Source: Sedimentisphaera cyanobacteriorum (GTDB lineage Bacteria; Planctomycetota; Phycisphaerae; Sedimentisphaerales; Sedimentisphaeraceae). Taken from it: a stretch of 32,000 bases of DNA. Shown in pieces: positions 7,753 through 26,058 of this stretch. The notes under the pieces were generated by a model. It did not search any database and was not told the origin of the DNA. It saw only the letters and a program-made list of their open reading frames with translations. The stretch spans positions 150,001-182,000 of the forward strand of contig NZ_CP019633.1 of assembly GCF_001997385.1 (NCBI RefSeq), read 5' to 3'. The first letter of the stretch is position 1. Each line of letters begins with the position of its first letter. Made by a program: the position numbers and the translations under genes.

Positions 7753-9984
7753 GTGGTTAACGAATCTGAAATAACATCCAGACTTCCAATGCAGGAGCCT
7801 CAGGCAGAGGGTATTCAGCTTACCCCGAAAGATATACTTACGATTATAAGAAGGCATCTTCTGCTGATCATCCTTCTTCCAATTTTAGGTGCGGCGATAG
7901 GCATAGGTTTATATTTTATGTTAGCAAAGTATTCCCCGAAATTTACATCTGTATCTGCGATAAGGGTTTTGGAGCCTGAAATCAGCGACCCAATGAAGCT
8001 GGCTGCGAGAATGTCTAATACCGACACTTACTACCAGTTCCGTCAAACGAAGGCTCGATTTATCAAACAGCAGGATATGCTTCAAAACCTTCTCGAAACA
8101 GATCAGGTGCGAAACACCCAGTGGTTCCGCCAGTTTGTAGCTGATGACGGAAGGCCTGATATTGCTGAGGCTTTAGCAGCTTTAGAAAGCAGCATTGGGG
8201 TTAGTGTTGCAAGAGACAACTTTATTATCCAGGTCAGTTTTTCCAGTAAAAGCGCTCGTGAATCAAAGCTTATTCTCGACCAGCTCGTAGAGCTGTACAC
8301 CAAATCCCAGCTTGAAAGAGAAACGCAGACCCAGCGTGATAAGCTGGCTCAGGCAAAAGAAGAAGAGCGAAAAGTGCGTGCTGAGATCAGGGCGGCCGAG
8401 GCCTCTCTTAGAGATATCCGTCAGTCTAATCCTACGCTAGCAGAATTCAGCGACACTGGTGATACTGGCAGCCAAAGGCACAGTATCAAGGTAAAGCACG
8501 ACTCTCTCGAGGTTCAGGTTATGGATCTTGAGGGGCAGATCAGTGAGATTGAATCGCGAATCGCTACTCTCGAATCCAGAGCTCAGGGCGAGTTTGACGA
8601 AGTCGTACGTGAGCAGATGGAGAACGACCCGATCGCAATCTCTGCCCGCCAGCGAATACTTTACCTCAGGCCTGAGCTTGCAAGGCTCACCGCAAAGCTG
8701 GGCGAGAACCACCGCTCTGTTCGAAAAATGCGTGAGCAGCTCAGAATGGCTGAGTCCGAGCTAAACAGCAGGCAGAACTTCATAGCGGAGCTTAACAGAC
8801 AGTCGGAGCTCCAGCATGCGGAAGACCAGCGTGCTTTCCTTGTCAGCCAGCTTGAGAATTACAGAGCCCAGCTTCAGGATGCTCTTCTCAAGCAGAAAGA
8901 GCTTGATGAGCTCAGGGCGGAATATGAATCATTTGTAGAGATCCGAGAAAGAGGCCGTGAAAGGCTTGAAAAGCTCATAGACCATATCCAGAGCCTTAAT
9001 ATGCTCGTAAGGGATCCGAAGGTTTCCAAGCTTGAGCCTCTGGGCGAGGCGATTCTGCCTCTTCAGAAGAGCTTCCCGGACTTAAAGCTCTTCATTCCTG
9101 CCGGCATTGTACTTGGCGGTTTCATAGCAGTAGTATTCGCCTTCATACGTGAATTGGCTAATGATAAGCTTAGAACTCCGCAGGATGTATCCAAGGCGGT
9201 AGATATCCCGGTTCTCGGTGTAATATACAACAGCAGTGAAGATGATGATGTTGAGGATATTCAGCCTGAACGTGTCGTAAATGAAGCCCCGAACTCTGTA
9301 ACAGGCGAGGCATATCGTCAGCTTAAATCTAATGTTAAGCTCTCAGGTGCTCTGGGTTACGGTCAGGTGCTGATGATAACAAGCGCAAATCCCCATGAAG
9401 GCAAATCTACAGTAGCCTCGAATCTCTCTGTCAGCCTCGCTGCTGAGCAGAATAAGGTGCTGTTGATTGATGCGAACTTCCGCAGACCTGCCTTCAGCAT
9501 ATACGCCTCTCAATCAGGTGAATCGGAAGACCATCACATGATTTCAGGTCTCAGCGAAGTGTTAGCAGGCAATAAATCCACTGAGGAAGTTATTGTTTCC
9601 GGTCAGGTTGCAAACTTGGACATAATGGCCTGCGGCGAGCTCCCCGAGATGCCTTCCGAGATGCTCTCAGGACGTTCAATGAATCAGTTCCTCGGTGATG
9701 TAAAAGATAAGTATGACTTTGTGGTTATTGATGCTCCTCCTGTGATTATGAGTGAGGCAAAGAGCTTAAGCGCTATGGCTGATTCAACTCTCGTTGTATT
9801 CAACGCACAGATGACTAAGCGAGGCGTTGCCCAAAGAACTGTGCGGGAGCTTGATGTGGTTAATGCTAATGTGATAGGCTGCTCGCTTGTTTCTGCGAAA
9901 GCTCTCAAAGGCGGCTACTTCAACCAGTACCTCAAAACCTACAAGGATTATATAGAATCAATGCCTGAAACTAAGGCTTCTTAA
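7753..9984 (+). CDS. Polysaccharide co-polymerase / BY-type tyrosine autokinase (Wzc/GumC-like)
   Basis: GTG start 7 nt after AGAGGA. The N-terminal Wzz-like region has 2 TM helices flanking a long coiled coil. The C-terminal kinase has Walker A SANPHEGKST, Walker A' LLIDANFRRP, Walker B VVIDAPP and a Tyr-rich tail GGYFNQYLKTYKDYIE. Confidence 0.85.
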   Translation: MVNESEITSRLPMQEPQAEGIQLTPKDILTIIRRHLLLIILLPILGAAIGIGLYFMLAKYSPKFTSVSAIRVLEPEISDPMKLAARMSNTDTYYQFRQTKARFIKQQDMLQNLLETDQVRNTQWFRQFVADDGRPDIAEALAALESSIGVSVARDNFIIQVSFSSKSARESKLILDQLVELYTKSQLERETQTQRDKLAQAKEEERKVRAEIRAAEASLRDIRQSNPTLAEFSDTGDTGSQRHSIKVKHDSLEVQVMDLEGQISEIESRIATLESRAQGEFDEVVREQMENDPIAISARQRILYLRPELARLTAKLGENHRSVRKMREQLRMAESELNSRQNFIAELNRQSELQHAEDQRAFLVSQLENYRAQLQDALLKQKELDELRAEYESFVEIRERGRERLEKLIDHIQSLNMLVRDPKVSKLEPLGEAILPLQKSFPDLKLFIPAGIVLGGFIAVVFAFIRELANDKLRTPQDVSKAVDIPVLGVIYNSSEDDDVEDIQPERVVNEAPNSVTGEAYRQLKSNVKLSGALGYGQVLMITSANPHEGKSTVASNLSVSLAAEQNKVLLIDANFRRPAFSIYASQSGESEDHHMISGLSEVLAGNKSTEEVIVSGQVANLDIMACGELPEMPSEMLSGRSMNQFLGDVKDKYDFVVIDAPPVIMSEAKSLSAMADSTLVVFNAQMTKRGVAQRTVRELDVVNANVIGCSLVSAKALKGGYFNQYLKTYKDYIESMPETKAS

Positions 9985-10004
9985 AAGAGTGTTTAGTTGG
10001 ATAA

Positions 10005-10976
10005 ATGGGAATTAATATGATACGCAGATTTACTAAATTACTTTTGCCGCTTCTGGTTGCCGCATTTTTTATAGCCGGCTGCCAAGACCCTAAGAAAATT
10101 TATGTCGAGGCCGTTGAACTGGATGAGAAAGGCCAGTCCGATCAGGCAATAGAAACTTTGGATGAAGCTATAAAGGCAGACTCTGAATTTTCAGATGCAT
10201 ATTCCCTTAAAGGAGATATCTTTCAGCGTCAGGGAAAGCTTGAGCAAAGCTCTCAGGCCTATGAGCAGGCTGTGAAATATAATCCTGTTTCCTTCAAGGA
10301 TTTGTACAATCTCGGCAAAGTTAATTATGCCTTGGACAGGTACGAAAAAGCTATAGGAGCTTTCGTTCGTGCTTTGGAGCTTCATCCTGAAAGCTACGAT
10401 GCCAACTACTTCACAGCCAAAACCTATTACAAGCTTGAAGACTATGAGAAGGCATTGAATTACGCCACCGAGGCGAGGCTTATCAGCCCTGATAACACCG
10501 AGCTTGAAATCCTTTTCGGCGATATCTACACCGCAACGAGCAATTACGAAACAGCGATCGCTGAATATAGAAGGGCTCTCGAGCGTGAAGGCAATAAGCC
10601 GGAGATTATGATTCCTCTCGGCCTTGCATACATAAGAAGCGGGAGCTTTGATGTTGCAAGGGAGCTGCTGAATGAGACGATAAGGGTAGCCCCAGACGAC
10701 CACAGAATCTATCAGTATCTCGGGTATCTCGATCTTCGCGCAAAAGATTTCGAGGCCTCTATCGAGAACTACAGGGTTGCAAGTTCGCTAAAACCCGGCG
10801 ATCAGCTCTCTCTGAAGGGCTCGGGTGTGGCATACATATTGAAAGGATTCAGGGATAAAGACCCTGTAATCAAAGATAAAGGAATACAGCAGTGGCGTGT
10901 TGCCTTGAGGCTTCAGCCAGACCAGCCCGGGCTTAGAAGACTTATAAGAAAGTATTCTAAGGTCAAGGTGCAGTAG
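10005..10976 (+). CDS. TPR-repeat lipoprotein
   Basis: Signal peptide with lipobox FFIAGC, followed by repeated TPR units (YSLKGDIFQRQGKLEQSSQAYEQAVKYNP etc). An alternative start at ATG 10017 (MIRRFTKLL) is equally plausible. Confidence 0.7.
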   Translation: MGINMIRRFTKLLLPLLVAAFFIAGCQDPKKIYVEAVELDEKGQSDQAIETLDEAIKADSEFSDAYSLKGDIFQRQGKLEQSSQAYEQAVKYNPVSFKDLYNLGKVNYALDRYEKAIGAFVRALELHPESYDANYFTAKTYYKLEDYEKALNYATEARLISPDNTELEILFGDIYTATSNYETAIAEYRRALEREGNKPEIMIPLGLAYIRSGSFDVARELLNETIRVAPDDHRIYQYLGYLDLRAKDFEASIENYRVASSLKPGDQLSLKGSGVAYILKGFRDKDPVIKDKGIQQWRVALRLQPDQPGLRRLIRKYSKVKVQ

Positions 10977-13150: not shown

Positions 13151-14914
13151 ATGAAATTAGATCCTACGGTTATGAAAGATTGGCAGATTGCGAAAGCTGC
13201 CGAAGAGAAAATGTTAAGCATAGCTCAGCTCGCCGAAAATCTCGGCCTGAGAGAAGATGAGCTTATTTATTACGGCAAAAATCTTGCCAAGGTCGATTAT
13301 CGAAAGGTATTAGACAGAACAGAGGGGCAGAAAAAAGCTCGATACATTGATGTAACAGCTATCACCCCAACACCCCTTGGCGAAGGCAAAACCACCACAA
13401 CCATTGGGCTTGTGGACGGCCTCGGAAGGCTCGGAAAGAGCGTAGCAGGGGCGATTAGGCAGCCTTCAGGCGGCCCAACCTTCAACATCAAAGGCTCAGC
13501 AGCGGGAGGCGGACTCGCACAGTGCATACCGCTCACCCCATTCTCCCTCGGCCTTACAGGCGATATAGATAAAATCACAAACGCCCATAACCTTTGTATG
13601 GTTGCCCTAAATGCGAGAATGCAGCACGAAAACAACTACGACGACGAAAAGCTCGCCCAGAGAAATCTAAAACGCCTCGATATAGACCCCCAAAAAGTTC
13701 AGCTCAAATGGGTAATTGATTTCTGCGCTCAGGGACTGAGGAATATCCGTATGGGCATCGGCGGGAAGATGGACGGCTTCGAGATGGATTCGGGCTTTGC
13801 GATTAGTGTATCAAGTGAGATTATGGCGATTCTCGCTGTAGCAAGAGATCTCAAAGACCTGCGTGAGAGAATCGGCAAAATAGTCGCTGCATACAGCAAA
13901 TCCGGCGAAGAGATTACAACAGAAGATCTCGAGGTAGCCGGAGCTATGACAGCTTGGCTCGTTGAGGCGATAAACCCAACACTGATGCAGACAATGGAGA
14001 AAAATCCTGTTTTCGTGCATGCAGGGCCGTTTGCAAATATTGCCATAGGGCAGAGCTCTGTAATTGCAGACCGCCTCGGCTCTAATCTCGTTGATTTCCA
14101 CGTTACCGAAAGTGGCTTCGGGGCAGACATCGGCTTCGAGAAGTTTTGGAACATAAAGTGCAGATATTCCGGCCTCAAGCCCGATGCTGTTGTGCTTGTA
14201 GCAACGGTTCGCGCCCTCAAGATGCATGGAGGCGGCCCGGAGGTTAAGCCGGGCAAGCCCCTGCCCAAGGAATACACAGAGCAAAATGTGGAGCTCGTAG
14301 AGAAGGGCTGCTCAAATCTGAAAGCACATATCGAAACGGTAATAAAGAGCGGGGTAACACCCGTTGTATGCATCAACAGCTTCCATACCGACACCCCTGC
14401 AGAAATTGAAGCAATTCGCACAGCCGCAGAGGCTGCTGGTGCATACTGCGCTGTTTCAGAGCACTGGCTGAAAGGCGGAGAGGGGGCAGAAGAGCTTGCC
14501 GAAACTGTGATTAGAGCGGCTGATGAGCCCTCAGATTTCAAATTCCTCTACGATTTTGATATGCCGGTAAAGAAAAGGATTGAACTGATTGCAAAAGAGG
14601 TGTACGGTGCTGATGGTGTTGAATTTGCGCCTGAGGCAGAGGAGAGGATTCAGCAGATTGAGCAGGACCCTGACAGCTCAAAGATGGCAACCTGTATGGT
14701 TAAAACGCACCTGAGCCTCTCGCACGATCCTGCAATTAAGGGAAGGCCGGAAGGATTTACTCTCCCTGTAAGGGATATAATGGTTTATAAAGGTGCAGGG
14801 CTTATTGTCCCCATTGCCGGAACAATCAAGCTTATGCCCGGTACAGGCTCTGACCCTGCCTTCAGAAGAATCGATGTTGATACGCAGACAGGCAAAGTGG
14901 AAGGGCTGTTCTGA
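13151..14914 (+). CDS. fhs: Formate--tetrahydrofolate ligase
   Basis: Diagnostic FTHFS motifs [41 protein letters not shown] and [15 protein letters not shown] 13151 (MKLDPTV) is preferred over the TTG at 13133 given in the ORF track. Confidence 0.95.
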
Positions 14915-14947
14915 AAATCCGCTTAGCTTTGCATCCCTTGAATCTTC

Positions 14948-14992
14948 AAAGCCGCTTAATATGGCAAGTCCTGTTGAGCGGCTTTTTGTATT
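14948..14992 (+). terminator. Possible intrinsic terminator after fhs
   Basis: AAAGCCGCT (14948-14956) pairs with AGCGGCTTT (14977-14985) and is followed by TTGTATTTTG. The 20-nt loop is large, so this is only moderate support. Confidence 0.4.
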
Positions 14993-15215
14993 TTGCTGCG
15001 ATTAGATAATCCAGCCGATAACAGTGAGAGAATGGGCTTCTTTACCGCCGGTTTTCATGTGAAAACATCACGAATTGAGAGGTTTTGCGGCCTTTTTCAA
15101 GAAAAAATTTCAAAAAATTCTGATTTTCCGGTAAAAATTCTTGATTACATTTTATCTTTTGCTATTATATATCCGTCCGAATTAGCTGTAACTTAATCAC
15201 GGAGGGTTTATTTAA

Positions 15216-19356: not shown

Positions 19357-19686
19357 CTAAAAAAGTTCCAGCTGTTTTGGGGCAGGGGGTTTTTGACGGC
19401 TCAATTTGCCCCAAAAAACCTTCATTTTTTCGTATTGCTTGTCGGTTACTACAAGAACCCTTACCTCTCCATCAGGCGGAAGGAAATTTTCTACTCTTCT
19501 GGTGTGTACTTCTGCATTTTCTTTGCTGGGGCAGAATCTTTCATAAACAGAATACTGAACCATTGTGAAGCCGTCTTTGATAAGATTTTTCCGAAAGATA
19601 GAATAACTTTTCCTTGCCATTTTTGTATCAGTGGGCAGATCGAACATAACATAAATCCACATCATTCTGTACTCGCTTAAATTCAT
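19357..19686 (-). CDS. cas2: CRISPR-associated endoribonuclease Cas2
   Basis: 109 aa with the type II Cas2 pattern MWIYVMFDLPTDTK..RK.Y..FRK.L.KDGF.MVQYSVYERF. It starts 10 nt downstream of the cas1 stop. Confidence 0.9.
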   Translation of the reverse strand: MNLSEYRMMWIYVMFDLPTDTKMARKSYSIFRKNLIKDGFTMVQYSVYERFCPSKENAEVHTRRVENFLPPDGEVRVLVVTDKQYEKMKVFWGKLSRQKPPAPKQLELF

Positions 19687-19696
19687 AATCTTTTCC

Positions 19697-20596
19697 TTAA
19701 AGCTCTGGAAGGCTCAGTTTCTTTGCTGACCTATCGAAACATTTAGTTAAAGATGCTGCTGTTTTATGAAGACCTGTCATAAGAGGCCCGGAAACCCCTT
19801 CCATTTCGATGGATGAATGCAGCGTTTCCAGCAGGCGGGCTTTATGTAATTGAGATAAATCCTGCAGCTCAGCGGGATTAGGATTTTCATGCCATATATT
19901 CAGAACTTTTTCCTCTATATAGCCTCGGAAAGGCTCCATTATATCATCTGCAAGGCAGAAAGAGTTGTATCTGCTGCAGTGATGTATCCCAAGAGTAGGC
20001 AAAAGGCCCGCACAGCATATAGCTCTCGCTGTAGCAGCCCGAAGAACCATATAGCCGTAATTAAGCAGATTATTTGGCGGTTCGCCACCTCTTTGCCTCT
20101 TGAATTTTCTTCCGCCCAAAAAATATTTCCAGAAAAGCCTGCTTGCCCTTGCTTCAATATTTTCAGGATCACCTGATTTAACTTTAGAGGCAAGCTCAGC
20201 AATCCCTATTCCGACTTCAGGATTATAATTTGATATTATTTTTCCCTGATGAGTTATTTTCGCTTTTATAAGCTGTTTCCAGAGGCGTTTTTTCAATGGC
20301 TGGGAGGCTTGGGTTTGCTGCTTCTGCCTTTCTGTTTGAACAGAATTTGAATCTATGGGAAGCAGCATACCTGCGGGGTTATGTTCTCCATTGCAAAGAA
20401 CAACTGCTGCCCGGCAGTTAAGCAGCTCTGTAAAAACGCTGTGAGTATATAAAACGGCCGAATTGTCTATCAGGAGAATTCCTATATCTTCACATGGGAT
20501 CGATCGTTCAATACCATTTTGGCTTGCGATTACCAATTGGCCATAACGAATGTTCAGTTTGCAGGAATTTTCTGATATTTCAATAATTCGTTTCAT
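19697..20596 (-). CDS. cas1: CRISPR-associated endonuclease Cas1 (type II)
   Basis: 299 aa. The N-terminus MKRIIEISENSCKLNIRYGQLVI and the segments NNLLNYGYMVLRAATARAI...GIHH...FCLADDIMEPFR are typical of type II Cas1. It is adjacent to cas2 and the array. Confidence 0.9.
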   Translation of the reverse strand: MKRIIEISENSCKLNIRYGQLVIASQNGIERSIPCEDIGILLIDNSAVLYTHSVFTELLNCRAAVVLCNGEHNPAGMLLPIDSNSVQTERQKQQTQASQPLKKRLWKQLIKAKITHQGKIISNYNPEVGIGIAELASKVKSGDPENIEARASRLFWKYFLGGRKFKRQRGGEPPNNLLNYGYMVLRAATARAICCAGLLPTLGIHHCSRYNSFCLADDIMEPFRGYIEEKVLNIWHENPNPAELQDLSQLHKARLLETLHSSIEMEGVSGPLMTGLHKTAASLTKCFDRSAKKLSLPEL

Positions 20597-20602
20597 TATC
20601 TA

Positions 20603-20618
20603 CCCCCCCCCCCCCCCC
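20603..20618. repeat. Homopolymer C16 (G16 on the cas-coding strand)
   Basis: Counted directly: 16 consecutive C from 20603 to 20618. It lies 6 nt upstream of the cas1 ATG (minus strand reads G16-TAGATA-ATG) and 4 nt (TAAA) before repeat 1. Confidence 0.95.
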
Positions 20619-20622
20619 TAAA

Positions 20623-21844
20623 GTTGTAACTTGCTTTCATTTTCATATCGCTTACAATTAAAGAGAATGCAGTTAAAGCCATGGAGCGTTGTAACTTGCT
20701 TTCATTTTCATATCGCTTACAATGAGGCAGACACGCAGAATATAACAAGGTTAGTTGTAACTTGCTTTCATTTTCATATCGCTTACAATTTAATCGAAAA
20801 TCGAAATTTGTCAACCCTTGTTGTAACTTGCTTTCATTTTCATATCGCTTACAATATAGAGGGTGTGCTTGACGCTAAGGGCTACGTTGTAACTTGCTTT
20901 CATTTTCATATCGCTTACAATATATATTTGAATCGTCCGAATACAGCGTTGTGTTGTAACTTGCTTTCATTTTCATATCGCTTACAATCAATGGATATGC
21001 ACGTGATGGCGATTTTATGTTGTAACTTGCTTTCATTTTCATATCGCTTACAATTCTCTGAATTGTAGTGCTGCGAAAATGAACGTTGTAACTTGCTTTC
21101 ATTTTCATATCGCTTACAATGTGCGGACGAATATCCTACAATTGCGTCAAGTTGTAACTTGCTTTCATTTTCATATCGCTTACAATTCCAAAAACTATCT
21201 GTAAGATAACCCTTGCGTTGTAACTTGCTTTCATTTTCATATCGCTTACAATGCTTCGGCACAAAAGAAGAAGCTGAAAAATGTTGTAACTTGCTTTCAT
21301 TTTCATATCGCTTACAATAGCGCAGCTCTTGAACAGTTAACCTTATTTGTTGTAACTTGCTTTCATTTTCATATCGCTTACAATCTACTTGGTATATAAG
21401 CGGGTCAGCCGAAGTTGTAACTTGCTTTCATTTTCATATCGCTTACAATCTGTATCGTCAAACCAATATACGCTTGTCGTTGTAACTTGCTTTCATTTTC
21501 ATATCGCTTACAATCTGCGAAGCGAAGCTGAAGCACACGGTGTCGTTGTAACTTGCTTTCATTTTCATATCGCTTACAATGCGCCCATTTCGATTCCCTT
21601 TGCGAGTCTGGTTGTAACTTGCTTTCATTTTCATATCGCTTACAATGCGCCCATTTCGATTCCCTTTGCGAGTCTGGTTGTAACTTGCTTTCATTTTCAT
21701 ATCGCTTACAATGCCGAATCGGAAATTAAAAACGGAGGAAACGTTGTAACTTGCTTTCATTTTCATATCGCTTACAATGGCGTGCAGTTTAGAGGCATGC
21801 GTTACGGAGTTGTAACTTGCTTTCATTTTCATATCGCTTACAAT
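20623..21844 (+). CRISPR. CRISPR array: 19 identical 36-nt repeats (GTTGTAACTTGCTTTCATTTTCATATCGCTTACAAT) and 18 spacers of 29-31 nt
   Basis: I located every repeat by hand. Starts are 20623, 20688, 20754, 20820, 20886, 20953, 21019, 21085, 21151, 21217, 21283, 21349, 21414, 21479, 21545, 21611, 21677, 21743 and 21809, with no degenerate copy. Plus-strand crRNA orientation is inferred from tracrRNA complementarity and from similarity to the Neisseria type II-C repeat. Confidence 0.98.
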
Positions 21845-21847
21845 TCG

Positions 21848-21886
21848 CCGCTTGTAAGCTCCTGATATGAAGGAGTTTACAAGCGG
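21848..21886. other. 15-bp stem-loop at the junction between the array and the cas9 3' end
   Basis: CCGCTTGTAAGCTCC (21848-21862), loop TGATATGAA, GGAGTTTACAAGCGG (21872-21886), with 14 Watson-Crick pairs plus 1 G-T. It is flanked by an A7/T7 run at 21894-21900. It is not a canonical terminator in either direction. Confidence 0.5.
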
Positions 21887-21926: not shown

Positions 21927-24900
21927 TTATTTCCATTCTTTTTCATATGAGTTACCTTCTCTCTCTGGTTTTTTTACGGAATAATATTTTCCCATCATAT
22001 CAACTTCAAATTTTTCTAATTTTGCATTTTTGTAAGAGAATTCTTTAGTGAAACTCTTTCCCTCCTCGTCAAATGAAGATCCATCATATTTTTTTAGCGA
22101 TATCACAGGCCTCCCCCCCCTTATATAATCTATGTAATACATTTGATCTTGGAATTTAACGAGGTCATCTTTAAATAAGGAAAATTTGAATTCAAACTCA
22201 TTTGTTAGTTCCGGCCAGTCTTCATACGGCGTATCTCCTTTTGAAAGATATTTCGAAGGAAGAGGGCTTTTTGCTGCAAAATCAGATGCGTAAAGCGGAA
22301 CAGCATAGTTTTTCCCGTCAGGTCCTTTGTAAAAATCTGCTCTGACGATATGTCCCATTCCGCAAAATCCCTTGTTGAACGGCTGAACCCTTCCCTTGAT
22401 ATTTGCTTTTCTCCAGCTTTTAGGGTTTTGAGAATGGGCTTCTCCGGTAACTTTCCTCCTCGGCATTCTAGAAACAAAGATATCGTCTAACTTCTTGAGC
22501 ACATCTTCTCTGAAACTCTCCCACGGCTCAAAATTGCAGTTTTTAAGCCTGCCGTTTATTGCCTTTCCCTTATTTTCCAAATCTTTGGCTATCATAGAAG
22601 CAAGGTAAACATGCCCCTGTGTTGAACAGGCAACTACAATTGCATCCAGAGCGTGGTGAAGATCGTTTTCTTCTCTGTGTTTCTTAAGCCCCCAGTGATA
22701 CCGCAGAAACGAAGTTACCCTTCCTGATCTGAGCTGAACTCTGCTCTTTTCGTTTATGTCTTCTCTTTGTGATTTTGAAAAATCGAGATGTTTTTTGAGA
22801 AAACCCGCAATCTCTTTGGCTGCGTATCTGGTATCATTAAGATTTCTTGAAATGAAGCGGTCTTTATCTTCCTCGTCAAATTTCTTTGTAAGAAGCTTTC
22901 GTTTTTTGGCAGAAGGCATTGTTCCCATATGCCCCACTCTAACTACAAACTCTTCCCATTTCTTTGGATCCTTGCTTAGATATTCAAAGGGGAGCATGTT
23001 TTTCTTTTCCTGATTGGCCTTTTTTGTGCAGAGAACCTTATTGTTGAGGCTGTCGTCGAATGACCTGCTTATCGGGATAATGTGGTCAATTTCGCAGTCC
23101 AGCAGACTGCCTGAAATATCTTCGCCGCTGTATGGGCAGGCGTGGATATATTGGCCCGTATAAGGGCAGCGGTATTTCTGCTGCATTGCGAGCCTGAATC
23201 TCAGCAGATTCTGGCCTTCTTCCGGATTGAGCCCGAATTCCCTGCAAAGCTCTTTGGCCTGCTCTTTCTGATCTCTGTAGCGTGTTTGTTTCTTGTAAAT
23301 GTCGTTGAGCTTTTTCTGGCTTGAAGCGAGTTCAGTTGCTATTTCTATGTTGATTTGGTCTATTGGGTATTCGCTGGAGTATTTTCTGATTACAGCATTT
23401 ATCAGCTTTCTTGTTTGGCTGAAGGTTCTCATTACAACAGGATTATTTTCAAAATCCCCATGGTAGGGTTGGAGTATGGATTGTTTTTCATGTTCCTTAT
23501 CTTTGAAGCGGGGATCGTTTTCAGCAGCAGCTATTCTGGCATCTTCAAAATATTTACCCTCTTCCATATGCGGAAGCAGCTTTTGAAAAGCCTCTTTTGA
23601 AAAATTGGCAACTTCCTTCATATTGATAAAAAGAGCAGCCTTTGCAATCTCTTCATCAATACCTTTTTCTTTAAAATAGTTTCCTCTTGTTTCATCTGTT
23701 TTATGGTAAACAAGGGCCTCAGAAATTGCCTCTATTGTTTCAGGGCTATCAGCTATCTCACTCCATTTATCATTGCCGAGGGTATTTGTGATGCAGTCTT
23801 TTATCTTGTGGTATCCCTTTAATTCAACGAAATCCTGCTTTGATTCAAATTGTTTGAGATACTCAAGTTTGCTTTTGAATTCTTCCTCTCCCTTAGGGTA
23901 TTTGTTCAGTATCTGGACAAACCTGTATTTTGAAGGAATCTCGAGCTTGGCTCTTAGAATATAATAATAAAAGTCGATTTTTTGAACCTTCGAACTGCCG
24001 TACTTTTCTGCTCTCCTTGCATACACCTTCCTTATAAGCTCTTTATATTCTTGCGAATAATCTTCCACGTGCTCTAATGTTCCGGTCTCTCGGTCTAATG
24101 ATTGAATTGCTGCCGCTTTTATTTGATGTTTATCTTCAAACAAAGGTTCTTTTTCATTAACCTTGCAGGACAGTTTCTGATTATATTCAGGATTTTCCAT
24201 TTGGTAAGAGCAAAGGTTGAATCTAATATTTTCGTTAATATCAAGGAAATTTCGGATTTGGGAAAATTTCAGTTTTTTGTTTTTATAGGCAAGCTTCTTG
24301 ATGCTTTCCCTTTGCTCATCAGTTGGAGGTTTTCCGCCTATCAGAAGACTGTTCAGCCTGTTCAGCAAAACGTAGCGTTCATTGAGATAGCCTTCGCGGG
24401 GAGCGCATATTTCGCCGGTGAATTTGCACCGGTTCATCATCTTGAGGAGTTTATCTTCCTGTATTCCAGCTTCATAAAGCAGCACTTCATCAAGATATCT
24501 CCTAAGCAGTTCATCACTCGCTGATTCGTTGCCAAGTGCTTTCTGTTTTTTAAAAATAATTATAGTTTCATCTTTAAGTAAATTTCGGTGAATGGATTTA
24601 GTGTAATCATTTTCAGAATTGCGAAGCCTGACATTTTCACCTTCTAAAAAATTAACAGCGAACATTTCGCCAATTGTTTGGCATCTGCTCTCTTTGAGCT
24701 GCTCTCTGATATTCTGCAGACCTTTCTTAACCTTTCCTTCTTCGGAAGATCCGGATGGTTTTTCTGATTCTTCTGCTTTTGTGAGAAATGAAACGCCTCT
24801 ATGTCGTGCTATGTGATACAAAGCCCGGAAAAACTCTTCGTTTGTAAGTTTTCTTGAAAGTGCTTCTTTTCTAATATTCCATGGGCTCCATTTGTTTTTG

Positions 24901-25262
24901 TCGGTGCTGGCAGGGGGGATCATTTTCCTGCAGGCCTGTTTGAATCTTATGTTTGGCTCTATAAGCCCAAATTCCTTGGCAAGAGAAACAAATCTTTTCA
25001 TCCTTTTCGTTTTGCGTCTTCCTGTTAATCTTGCCCTTCGTTTTTCGCCTCTTATTTTTGCAAGGCTTTTTTGTTCATTGTGGGGCGGCTGAAAAGTCCT
25101 TACGCCTGAATCTATTATTTCTCCTCCCGATATCTTTAGTTTTTTCTTGTGTTCGCCTTCGTATGTTTGGTAATCATATTCTTCTTCTTCAAGATTAACC
25201 AAAGCCCAGCCTACTGAACCAATTCCTATATCCAGTCCTAAAACAACTCTGTTTTTTGCCAT
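21927..25262 (-). CDS. cas9: Cas9 endonuclease, type II-C, 1111 aa
   Basis: RuvC-I VLGLDIGIGSVGWALV (D11). Arg-rich bridge helix GEKRRARLTGRRKTKRMKRF. RuvC-II IDQINIEIATELA. HNH LDCEIDHIIPISRSFDDSLNNKVLCTKKANQEKKN (His codon at 23082-23084, residue 727). RuvC-III NDLHHALDAIVVAC. It sits next to the array, cas1, cas2 and the tracrRNA. Confidence 0.97.
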   Translation of the reverse strand: MAKNRVVLGLDIGIGSVGWALVNLEEEEYDYQTYEGEHKKKLKISGGEIIDSGVRTFQPPHNEQKSLAKIRGEKRRARLTGRRKTKRMKRFVSLAKEFGLIEPNIRFKQACRKMIPPASTDKNKWSPWNIRKEALSRKLTNEEFFRALYHIARHRGVSFLTKAEESEKPSGSSEEGKVKKGLQNIREQLKESRCQTIGEMFAVNFLEGENVRLRNSENDYTKSIHRNLLKDETIIIFKKQKALGNESASDELLRRYLDEVLLYEAGIQEDKLLKMMNRCKFTGEICAPREGYLNERYVLLNRLNSLLIGGKPPTDEQRESIKKLAYKNKKLKFSQIRNFLDINENIRFNLCSYQMENPEYNQKLSCKVNEKEPLFEDKHQIKAAAIQSLDRETGTLEHVEDYSQEYKELIRKVYARRAEKYGSSKVQKIDFYYYILRAKLEIPSKYRFVQILNKYPKGEEEFKSKLEYLKQFESKQDFVELKGYHKIKDCITNTLGNDKWSEIADSPETIEAISEALVYHKTDETRGNYFKEKGIDEEIAKAALFINMKEVANFSKEAFQKLLPHMEEGKYFEDARIAAAENDPRFKDKEHEKQSILQPYHGDFENNPVVMRTFSQTRKLINAVIRKYSSEYPIDQINIEIATELASSQKKLNDIYKKQTRYRDQKEQAKELCREFGLNPEEGQNLLRFRLAMQQKYRCPYTGQYIHACPYSGEDISGSLLDCEIDHIIPISRSFDDSLNNKVLCTKKANQEKKNMLPFEYLSKDPKKWEEFVVRVGHMGTMPSAKKRKLLTKKFDEEDKDRFISRNLNDTRYAAKEIAGFLKKHLDFSKSQREDINEKSRVQLRSGRVTSFLRYHWGLKKHREENDLHHALDAIVVACSTQGHVYLASMIAKDLENKGKAINGRLKNCNFEPWESFREDVLKKLDDIFVSRMPRRKVTGEAHSQNPKSWRKANIKGRVQPFNKGFCGMGHIVRADFYKGPDGKNYAVPLYASDFAAKSPLPSKYLSKGDTPYEDWPELTNEFEFKFSLFKDDLVKFQDQMYYIDYIRGGRPVISLKKYDGSSFDEEGKSFTKEFSYKNAKLEKFEVDMMGKYYSVKKPEREGNSYEKEWK

Positions 25263-25289
25263 TTGTAAAACCTTTTTCCTTGAAATTAT

Positions 25290-25430
25290 TTTTTAAACGC
25301 TATAATAATATTCGAAAGCAAGTTACAATAAGCCTTTGCTTAGCAAAGGTTGCGGGGTTAGCCATATTCGGTATCCCCTCATTTATTGTTTTCTAAGGGT
25401 AAGAGCATTCCTCTTGCCCTTTCTAGATTT
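25290..25430 (+). ncRNA. tracrRNA (both ends uncertain)
   Basis: 25314-25329 GAAAGCAAGTTACAAT is the reverse complement of repeat nt 1-16 (15/16 matches). It is followed by the nexus-like AAGCC and hairpin CCTTTGC-TTA-GCAAAGG (25333-25349), then a GGGG...CCCC stem (25354-25378) with a T-rich tail, then a 10-bp hairpin (25396-25420). The motif GCAAGTTACAATAAGCC resembles the Spy and Nme tracrRNAs. A possible promoter is TTGAAA (25280-25285) with TATAAT (25301-25306). Confidence 0.8.
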
Positions 25431-25553
25431 AAACCTGCCAATCCCAACATTCCTTTTATAAAATACAAAAAGATTTTAAATTTAATTTTAGCATTTTAAA
25501 AGTTAGAATCAAGTAATAATGATATAATATAATCAAATATTTTCCCGCCGCAT

Positions 25554-25579
25554 AAAAAAAAGCCCCGATTTCTCGGGGC
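25554..25579 (-). terminator. Rho-independent terminator of hsp20
   Basis: The minus strand reads GCCCCGA-GAAA-TCGGGGC followed by T8, starting 15 nt after the hsp20 stop codon. Confidence 0.8.
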
Positions 25580-25593
25580 TTTGGGTTGTTTAA

Positions 25594-26058
25594 TTATTTG
25601 ATCTCGATTTTCTTCCTGCCGGCTCCTTCTTCGGTTTTCGGAACAGTAATCTTTAGCAGTCCGTCGCTGAAGCTCGCATCGATTTTGTTCTCATCAACGT
25701 TGTGAGCAAACGGAACCACTCTCCTGAACGAACCGAACGTCCGTTCTACGTGGTAATAGTTTGAATCTTTCTCTTCGTTTGTGTCCTTCTTTTCGCCTTC
25801 GAGGATCAGCGTATTGTCGTTCAGCGTAACATTAATATCATCCTTGTTCATGCCCGCCAGCTCAGCGGTAACCAAGTAGTTCTTCTCGTCCTCGGAAACA
25901 TCCACGCTCGGGACAAATTTGCTCATCAATCCTTCCGCAGGCCCGAAAGCGGGGAAGCCGCTGAACATATCATCGAACATCCTGTCGATCTTATCTGCCA
26001 TACTCATAGGTGCGTTTGGAGTCTGATTATTGTTCCTTCTTGAAAGTACGTTCCTCAT
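25594..26058 (-). CDS. Small heat-shock protein, Hsp20/alpha-crystallin family
   Basis: Alpha-crystallin domain pattern: PSVDVSEDEKNYLVTAELAGMNKDDINVTL..NTLILEGEKK...ERTFGSFRRVVPF...VDENKIDASFSDGLLKITVPK. GGAGAA RBS. Confidence 0.9.
   Translation of the reverse strand: MRNVLSRRNNNQTPNAPMSMADKIDRMFDDMFSGFPAFGPAEGLMSKFVPSVDVSEDEKNYLVTAELAGMNKDDINVTLNDNTLILEGEKKDTNEEKDSNYYHVERTFGSFRRVVPFAHNVDENKIDASFSDGLLKITVPKTEEGAGRKKIEIK

Follow-up and report, generated by a model that had tools for sequence, protein, structure and literature searches.

Predicted repeat-embedded promoters in a type II-C CRISPR array of the planctomycete Sedimentisphaera cyanobacteriorum

Promoters embedded in the repeats have been described for the CRISPR RNAs (crRNAs) of type II-C CRISPR-Cas9 systems. 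Those of Neisseria meningitidis give primary crRNAs with triphosphate 5′-ends at the 6th spacer nucleotide (nt), as reported in PMC5965381 and PMC12477760, and in Campylobacter jejuni crRNA transcription starts at spacer nt 5 from a promoter at the 3′-end of the repeat, with no leader promoter (PMC3656092). In a survey of 132 type II genomes, II-C repeats were found to end in gnTAnaaT, which corresponds to a sigma-70 -10 box, the II-C arrays were found to be convergent with the cas genes, and their proximal (first) repeat was found to degenerate (PMC4607530). The strategy is already known, and the array described here, from the planctomycete Sedimentisphaera cyanobacteriorum, is a further instance of it, in which the promoters are predicted from the DNA sequence and are considered fairly likely to work. 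The stretch analysed (the window) comprises 32,000 nt, namely positions 150,001–182,000 of contig NZ_CP019633.1 (assembly GCF_001997385.1).

The window carries a type II-C CRISPR-Cas9 locus that is complete, and its components follow one another in the order trans-activating crRNA (tracrRNA) gene (+), cas9 (-), a hairpin, the array (crRNA sense +), a tract of 16 C residues, cas1 (-) and cas2 (-). The organism is a planctomycete (Phycisphaerae), and the window TyrS shares 90% identity with that of Sedimentisphaera salicampi. The array (coordinates 20623–21844) consists of 19 repeats and 18 spacers of 29–31 nt, and the 36-nt repeat, GTTGTAACTTGCTTTCATTTTCATATCGCTTACAAT, is present in 19 exact copies. 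TTGCTT occupies nt 9–14 of the repeat and TACAAT nt 31–36, with a gap of 16 nt, and the same promoter-like element is found in every repeat, from the first (20631–20658, +; TTGCTT at 20631–20636, 16-nt spacer, TACAAT at 20653–20658) to the last (21817–21844, +). The triplet before TACAAT is GCT, hence without TG and with C at -14. The original prediction had described both this element in 19 identical repeats and the 26 base pairs (bp), including the C tract, that separate the cas1 ATG from repeat 1 (20597–20622), and the sequence bears out both descriptions. It had also given the N. meningitidis repeat correctly (GTTGTAGCTCCCTTTCTCATTTCGCAGTGCTACAAT; PMC12477760), which agrees with the window repeat at 21 of 36 ungapped positions, and the window repeat is indeed of the type II-C kind, with a 3′-end that is homologous to the -10 box embedded in the repeats of Neisseria and Campylobacter.

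The N. meningitidis system resembles that in the window in having only cas9, cas1 and cas2, a tracrRNA-dependent Cas9, an array opposite to the cas genes, and a 36-nt repeat of the form GTTGTA...TACAAT with the -10 box in its last 6 nt and a transcription start (predicted, in the window) a few nt into the spacer. However, the Neisseria repeat has an extended -10 element (TGCTACAAT) and no TTG at -35, whereas the window repeat has GCTTACAAT plus TTGCTT 16 nt upstream. The window array lies between cas9 and cas1, whereas that of Neisseria lies after cas2, and the tracrRNA of the window, unlike that of Neisseria, apparently begins with a 16-nt anti-repeat, so that its duplex would be short. No Neisseria Cas9 was among the 120 matches listed for the window Cas9, in which the matches outside the planctomycete clade were ~27–40% identical. 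The minimal II-C system of C. jejuni likewise has a promoter at every repeat's 3′-end, which is a prediction in the case of the window, but the 3′-end of the Campylobacter repeat, GGTAAAAT, includes the -14 G that is missing from the window repeat, and processing of its crRNA 3′-ends by RNase III and tracrRNA has been demonstrated (PMC3656092).

The three II-C traits identified in the survey, namely the -10 box, the convergent array and first-repeat decay, all hold for the Cas9 clade to which the window belongs, whereas the window itself lacks the 'g' of the signature gnTAnaaT. No planctomycete locus was evident in the survey, nor any locus with the array directly after cas9 (PMC4607530). Type II-A systems, of the Streptococcus pyogenes type, share Cas9, a tracrRNA and a 36-nt repeat with the window but differ in having one leader promoter on the cas strand and repeats that end in C and include no -10 box (PMC4607530, and the II-A-like repeats sampled here).

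Conservation and strength of the repeat -10 box

A sample of 160 loci (L001–L160) was fetched for comparison, and a logo was derived from the 20 distinct repeats of the window's Cas9 clade. In this logo, nt 28 is T (75%), nt 29 is G (95%), nt 30 is free, nt 31–32 are TA (100%), nt 33 is C or T, nt 34–35 are AA (100%) and nt 36 is T (95%). The 3′-end of the clade repeat therefore reads TGnTAnAAT, the extended -10 consensus, and the positions that vary are those at which promoters tolerate variation.

The first repeat in the crRNA sense was degenerate in 22 of 42 II-C arrays among the 160 loci, and the last repeat in none of 52. The 86 mismatches in these first repeats were not spread evenly, with 84 in nt 1–25, one at nt 26, one at nt 29 and none in nt 31–36. 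Uniform decay would put ~14 of them in the hexamer, and the probability of finding none there is ~1.5e-7 when mismatches are treated as independent. Across the family, the -10 box at nt 31–36 was kept in all 22 decayed first repeats, and those with 9–12 mismatches still had TATGGTATAAT or TAAAAT at their 3′-end. As no spacer precedes the first repeat, the part that pairs with the tracrRNA is useless there and the only use remaining to this repeat would be that of a promoter, which suggests that the box is preserved by selection in first repeats, where it is the one that would drive the first spacer. The first repeat of the window's own array is intact and therefore uninformative in this respect.

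A promoter model was built from the tracrRNA promoters, 42 in number, of the window's Cas9 clade. When it was applied to the 250 nt upstream of each array, a hit of at least 9 bits, as might represent an external promoter, was found for only 2 of 22 clade arrays. These comparisons argue for a -10 box that is functional in its own right across the related arrays.

With the same model, each copy of the window repeat scores 9.2 bits, compared with 7.5–19.3 bits (median 15.8) for the tracrRNA promoters. A score of at least 9.2 bits was obtained at 24 of 61,496 other positions in the window (the top 0.04%), sites of this strength occur ~0.2 times per kb per strand, and the pattern TTG-N(19-21)-TAnAAT placed flush with the 3′-end is found in 5.5e-5 of random 36-mers of window composition. 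The geometry TTGCTT-16-TACAAT is plausible for a -35/-10 promoter, and the 42 tracrRNA promoters of the clade include six with TG, five in which TACAAT serves as the -10 box without TG, and one (in L088) with TTGCTT as the -35 box.

Several observations weigh against a working promoter in the window repeat. A generic scan with the Escherichia coli consensus matched the repeat motif at 8 of 12 positions and, with a cut-off of 9, did not call it, and TTGCTT agrees with TTGACA at only 3 of 6 positions. The score obtained with the clade model leans on small-sample weights, and TTGCTT stands ~5 bits above TTGCTC merely because no tracrRNA -35 box ends in C. Of the 45 sampled II-C repeats with a 3′ -10 box, 43 keep the -14 G, as do 19 of the 20 clade repeats but not that of the window, and the loss of this base may have left the promoter weak or dead. 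The TTG at nt 9–11 is invariant, but as it lies in the stretch that pairs with the tracrRNA, its invariance needs no promoter role. Lastly, the hairpin that follows the array (described below) has a T-run after it in most relatives, whereas the tail in the window, AAATGATTT, is weak.

The original prediction had regarded the TTG as a different promoter solution that made up for the missing TG. This was not upheld, as TTG at nt 9–11 is present in all 20 distinct clade repeats, including 15 with a full TG, and is located inside the tracrRNA-pairing segment; it is therefore ancestral and not a response to the loss of TG. An association between the two features was also sought and rejected, TTG being present in 2 of 2 repeats without and 20 of 43 repeats with the -14 G (p ~0.23, hand calculation; non-significant).

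The reading of each repeat as a promoter is supported in part: its 3′-end is homologous to an extended -10 box that is selectively conserved across related arrays, but the window repeat is without the usual -14 G. We infer that this G-less variant still fires and that, if so, it probably does so as a weak -35/-10 promoter.

Besides that of the window, a single II-C repeat in the sample is without the -14 G, namely GCTGTTGTTTGACTTCAGTTTCCGCTTGAATACACT, from a spirochaete locus (L053; coordinates 7794–8092). It has TTGACT, a near-consensus -35 box, at nt 9–14, followed after 16 nt by TACACT, and its geometry is that of the window repeat. The two might form a second class of repeat promoter, with -35 and -10 boxes and no -14 G, though we lean somewhat against this grouping.

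Predicted crRNA biogenesis and its alternatives

In the proposed mechanism, RNA polymerase would use the sigma-70-type -10 box TACAAT (nt 31–36) at the end of each repeat, together with the TTG hexamer 16 nt upstream, and would start on the + strand, ~6–8 nt inside the spacer that comes next. Each spacer would be transcribed from the repeat that precedes it, and the 5′-end of the guide (~23–24 nt) would be made by initiation rather than by cleavage. The transcript would then enter the next repeat, of which nt 1–16 are predicted to pair with the anti-repeat of 16 nt with which the tracrRNA begins, and past the last repeat transcription would be stopped by the hairpin at 21848–21886 before it could enter cas9 in the antisense direction.

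The anti-repeat, GAAAGCAAGTTACAAT, was located by local alignment to the reverse complement of the repeat (16 nt, coordinates 25314–25329), and forms 15 Watson-Crick pairs and one G.U pair with nt 1–16 of the repeat as read on the + strand. It opens a tracrRNA (25314–25432, +), encoded upstream of cas9 in divergent orientation, that continues with two hairpins and ends in a terminator hairpin (25395–25421) with a T-rich tail, and that folds with -42.1 kcal/mol (z -5.1). The tracrRNA promoter (25280–25309, +; 11.4 bits) consists of TTGAAA at 25280–25285 and a -10 region, TAATAA/AATAAT, at 25303–25309, and predicts a start at or just before G25314; the corresponding geometry, TTGACA-17-TAnnnT-7-G, is found in 42 relatives. 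The tracrRNA element is present in 43 loci, and an alignment of 37 sequences includes compensatory changes in 11 of the 15 predicted pairs. The window repeat has G instead of the A of the clade consensus at nt 4 and T instead of C at nt 14, and both differences are matched in the window tracrRNA, by C instead of T and A instead of G. No Rfam family was found at gathering thresholds, and at E values up to 1 only weak matches to the rimP leader and BSnc120 were obtained, at 25514–25615, where they overlap a terminator-like hairpin (25559–25582).

In the window and the 42 related loci, the conserved promoter puts the tracrRNA start at the first base of the 16-nt anti-repeat, and the crRNA:tracrRNA duplex in this Cas9 clade may, judging from the predicted starts, be only ~16 bp long. 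A resemblance to the rest of the repeat (~70% in the window and in locus L004) persists in the 20 nt upstream of the tracrRNA start.

The crRNA sense had been placed on the + strand, opposite to the cas genes, and the pairing with the tracrRNA and the strand-specific hairpin after the array both support this. The array is opposite to the cas strand in all loci of the clade, and as the anti-repeat pairs with the + strand reading, transcription of the array from the minus strand only could not supply guides.

An unlikely alternative to the repeat promoters is that an external promoter upstream of repeat 1 gives one long pre-crRNA and that TACAAT is a relic disabled by the loss of the -14 G, a loss that may have such an effect given how regularly this base is kept (43 of 45 II-C repeats). 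A candidate, TTCACA-17-TACCAT (20489–20517, +), lies in antisense orientation within the coding region of cas1, 105 nt upstream of repeat 1. Its score of 10.5 bits exceeds the 9.2 bits of the repeat, a further point against the repeat promoters, and a site of at least 9.2 bits within 150 nt upstream is somewhat unexpected at ~0.2 sites per kb per strand. However, the site is not conserved, with no such hit in 20 of 22 clade arrays, and it is made of conserved Cas1 codons, TGTGAA encoding the Cys-Glu of the PCED motif; L015, a locus with a GC-rich flank, encodes the same residues as TGCGAG. The flank that contains the candidate is, moreover, the decaying and unconserved end of II-C arrays, and TACAAT is intact in all 19 repeats.

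It is also conceivable, though quite improbable, that the array is silent or nearly so, in a system that has been decaying since the extended -10 box was lost. The window repeat is the sole one of the 20 clade repeats without the -14 G, and no protospacers were found for its spacers: a BLAST comparison of the whole array with 50,697 phage records yielded chance-level matches only (E 0.4), the 3′ 22-mers of two spacers had no exact match in IMG/VR, and no spacer matched the window or any fetched locus. Against such decay, none of the three genes cas9, cas1 and cas2 is disrupted, two positions of the tracrRNA have co-varied with the repeat, and the variant is carried by 19 of 19 repeats, which would mean that the current spacers were acquired after it arose.

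That the repeat 3′-end is kept for a role at the DNA level, in recognition by Cas1-Cas2 or as part of a terminal inverted repeat GTTGTAA...TTACAAT, is highly improbable: the repeat ends are partly palindromic, and motifs at these ends are read by the integrase of well-studied type II-A systems, but the fixed and free positions fit TGnTAnAAT, a perfect palindrome needs a final C where 19 of 20 clade repeats have T, and decayed first repeats, which stand at the non-integrating end, lose the 5′ arm of the palindrome while keeping the -10 box (0 of 86 mismatches).

Two neighbouring spacers of the window array, 15 (21581–21610) and 16 (21647–21676), are identical 30-mers (GCGCCCATTTCGATTCCCTTTGCGAGTCTG), which points to duplication of a unit or to repeated acquisition.

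Flanks of the array and the cas genes

The hairpin next to the array (21848–21886, +; 16 bp) starts 4 nt past the last repeat and has a folding energy of -28.4 kcal/mol (z -7.9). It is homologous in 22 relatives, and in the 23 aligned sequences 72% of cells are paired, compared with 36–47% when the partners are slid. Its covariation score was reached by 0 of 500 shuffles. The core includes 41 G.U against 10 A.C combinations, and as G.U pairs exceed A.C, the hairpin is specific to the crRNA-sense transcript. RNAalifold predicted no structure in the region after the array, and the hairpin was drawn by hand and held up in the pair counts. It is likely, on this comparative evidence, to be a terminator for crRNA-sense transcription and part of a conserved flank on the cas9 side, and this flank is probably the leader. 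The promoter of the last repeat would transcribe the hairpin as an RNA of ~45 nt.

The arms of the hairpin resemble the 5′ part of the repeat and the anti-repeat, in the manner of a fused repeat:anti-repeat duplex. A second tracrRNA or a scaRNA-like RNA was considered for it, but as it is duplex-like without a nexus or further hairpins, it is treated here as a terminator and leader element, and a paper on the Neisseria scaRNA (PMC13431127) holds no positional parallel to it.

In the clade, the flank on the side of the first repeat is not conserved, whereas the ~80–100 nt between the last repeat and cas9 are. The original prediction had taken the 26-bp flank next to cas1 as a missing leader, which is probably wrong; this flank is likely to be at the old (trailer) end of the array, where first repeats decay. 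As the first repeat decays and the cas9-side flank is the conserved one, new spacers are, from this pattern, most likely inserted at the cas9 side, which is the 3′-end of the array in the crRNA sense. The order of spacers in two near-identical arrays (L085 and L096) was uninformative about the growing end, as they differ only by an internal deletion of two spacers. If so, no promoter in a leader on the cas9 side could transcribe the array in the crRNA sense, in keeping with promoters inside the array.

The 26 bp between the cas1 ATG and repeat 1 consist of TAGATA (on the other strand), the C16 tract and TAAA (on the + strand). The C16 tract (20603–20618; G16 on the cas strand) is thus separated from repeat 1 by 4 nt and from the cas1 ATG by 6 nt. 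G:C runs of at least 10 were present within 150 nt of the first-repeat end in 6 of 125 II-C arrays and at the other end in none, and the background frequency of such runs is 0.1% of 150-nt intervals. The long runs seen just outside the first repeat in other loci, which belong to several lineages, were G16 in L009 (12234–12249), G16 in L105 (5345–5360, 1 nt from the contig end), G8 plus C10 in L092 (5289–5298), C24 in L042 (13436–13459) and G11 in L034 (14114–14124). No report of G:C runs at the ends of II-C arrays was found in the literature searched.

A sigma-70-type promoter for cas1 on the cas strand was found neither in the window nor in any of eight related loci. As cas1 and cas2 have no recognisable promoter, they may depend on read-through from cas9, which would run across the array head-on against the repeat promoters. 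With 19 predicted repeat promoters directed towards cas9, guide expression could even be coupled to expression of the adaptation genes; we think this a long shot. If the coupling were true, the activity of the repeat promoters or the length of the array could set the rate of spacer acquisition, and so could slippage in the G16 tract, which lies 6 nt before the cas1 start codon.

On the cas strand, spacer 3 contains TTGACA, which with TAAATT at a spacer-repeat junction and a 16-nt spacing makes up a site directed towards cas1 (20787–20814, -). At 13.5 bits this is the best promoter-like site of the region, and TTGACA is expected by chance in ~1 in 5 arrays of this size.

The cas9 gene (21927–25262, -) encodes a protein of 1111 amino acids (aa) that matches TIGR01865 (E 2.9e-160), cas1 (19697–20596, -) one of 299 aa that matches the type II Cas1 profile cas1_NMENI (TIGR03639; E 4.9e-74), in an alignment that begins at residue 1–2, and cas2 (19357–19686, -) one of 109 aa that matches TIGR01573 (E 1.9e-21). 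The locus was assigned to type II-C because Cas9, a type II Cas1 and Cas2 are encoded and no open reading frame near the cas genes is long enough for Csn2 or Cas4; the small reading frames themselves were not scanned with profiles. All three genes are intact, and the window Cas9, used as the reference row, has every residue that is invariant across an alignment of 44 Cas9 sequences. Its nearest relatives share 44–54% identity among the matches listed and are nearly all from Planctomycetota, those named coming almost entirely from planctomycete metagenome bins. The genes that flank the cas locus, uppP, hsp20 and clpX, have housekeeping roles.

An array between cas9 and cas1 is unusual in type II-C but common in the window's Cas9 clade, in which most arrays start ~100 nt past the cas9 stop codon, and an array between cas9 and cas1-cas2 was also seen in L008, L015, L092, L097 and L106. 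Upstream of the tracrRNA gene, a promoter-like site directed towards cas9 (25485–25512, -; TTGATT-16-TAAAAT with TG before the -10 box) scores 13.3 bits, and if it were the cas9 promoter, the cas9 transcript would cross the tracrRNA gene in antisense.

Two further observations concern related loci. A spacer of L095 (within 9489–10250), in the cas9-strand reading, is ATTTTTCTCTTGACATACAACCGATAAAAG and resembles the conserved tracrRNA promoter region atttttctcTTGACAt, and this spacer may be directed against a related CRISPR locus. L015 (identical to L089) has a second array after cas2 (13505–15184) with a different repeat, GTTGTGGCTTGCTCTCAGGCATGGATTAGTTACAAT. A search of the locus that allowed up to 2 mismatches over 16 nt gave no anti-repeat for the latter, and the single tracrRNA matches the first array.

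No report of repeat-embedded crRNA promoters in Planctomycetota was found in the literature. The understanding of type II-C systems is unchanged by the finding, which supplies a parts list for an uncharacterised Cas9 clade, comprising the repeat, a tracrRNA of ~110–120 nt with a 16-nt anti-repeat, promoters and terminators. If the predicted promoters fire, transcription of crRNAs from within the repeats would extend to Planctomycetota, and the strategy would be one that survives loss of the -14 G, probably by way of the -35-like TTG in the stretch of the repeat that pairs with the tracrRNA.

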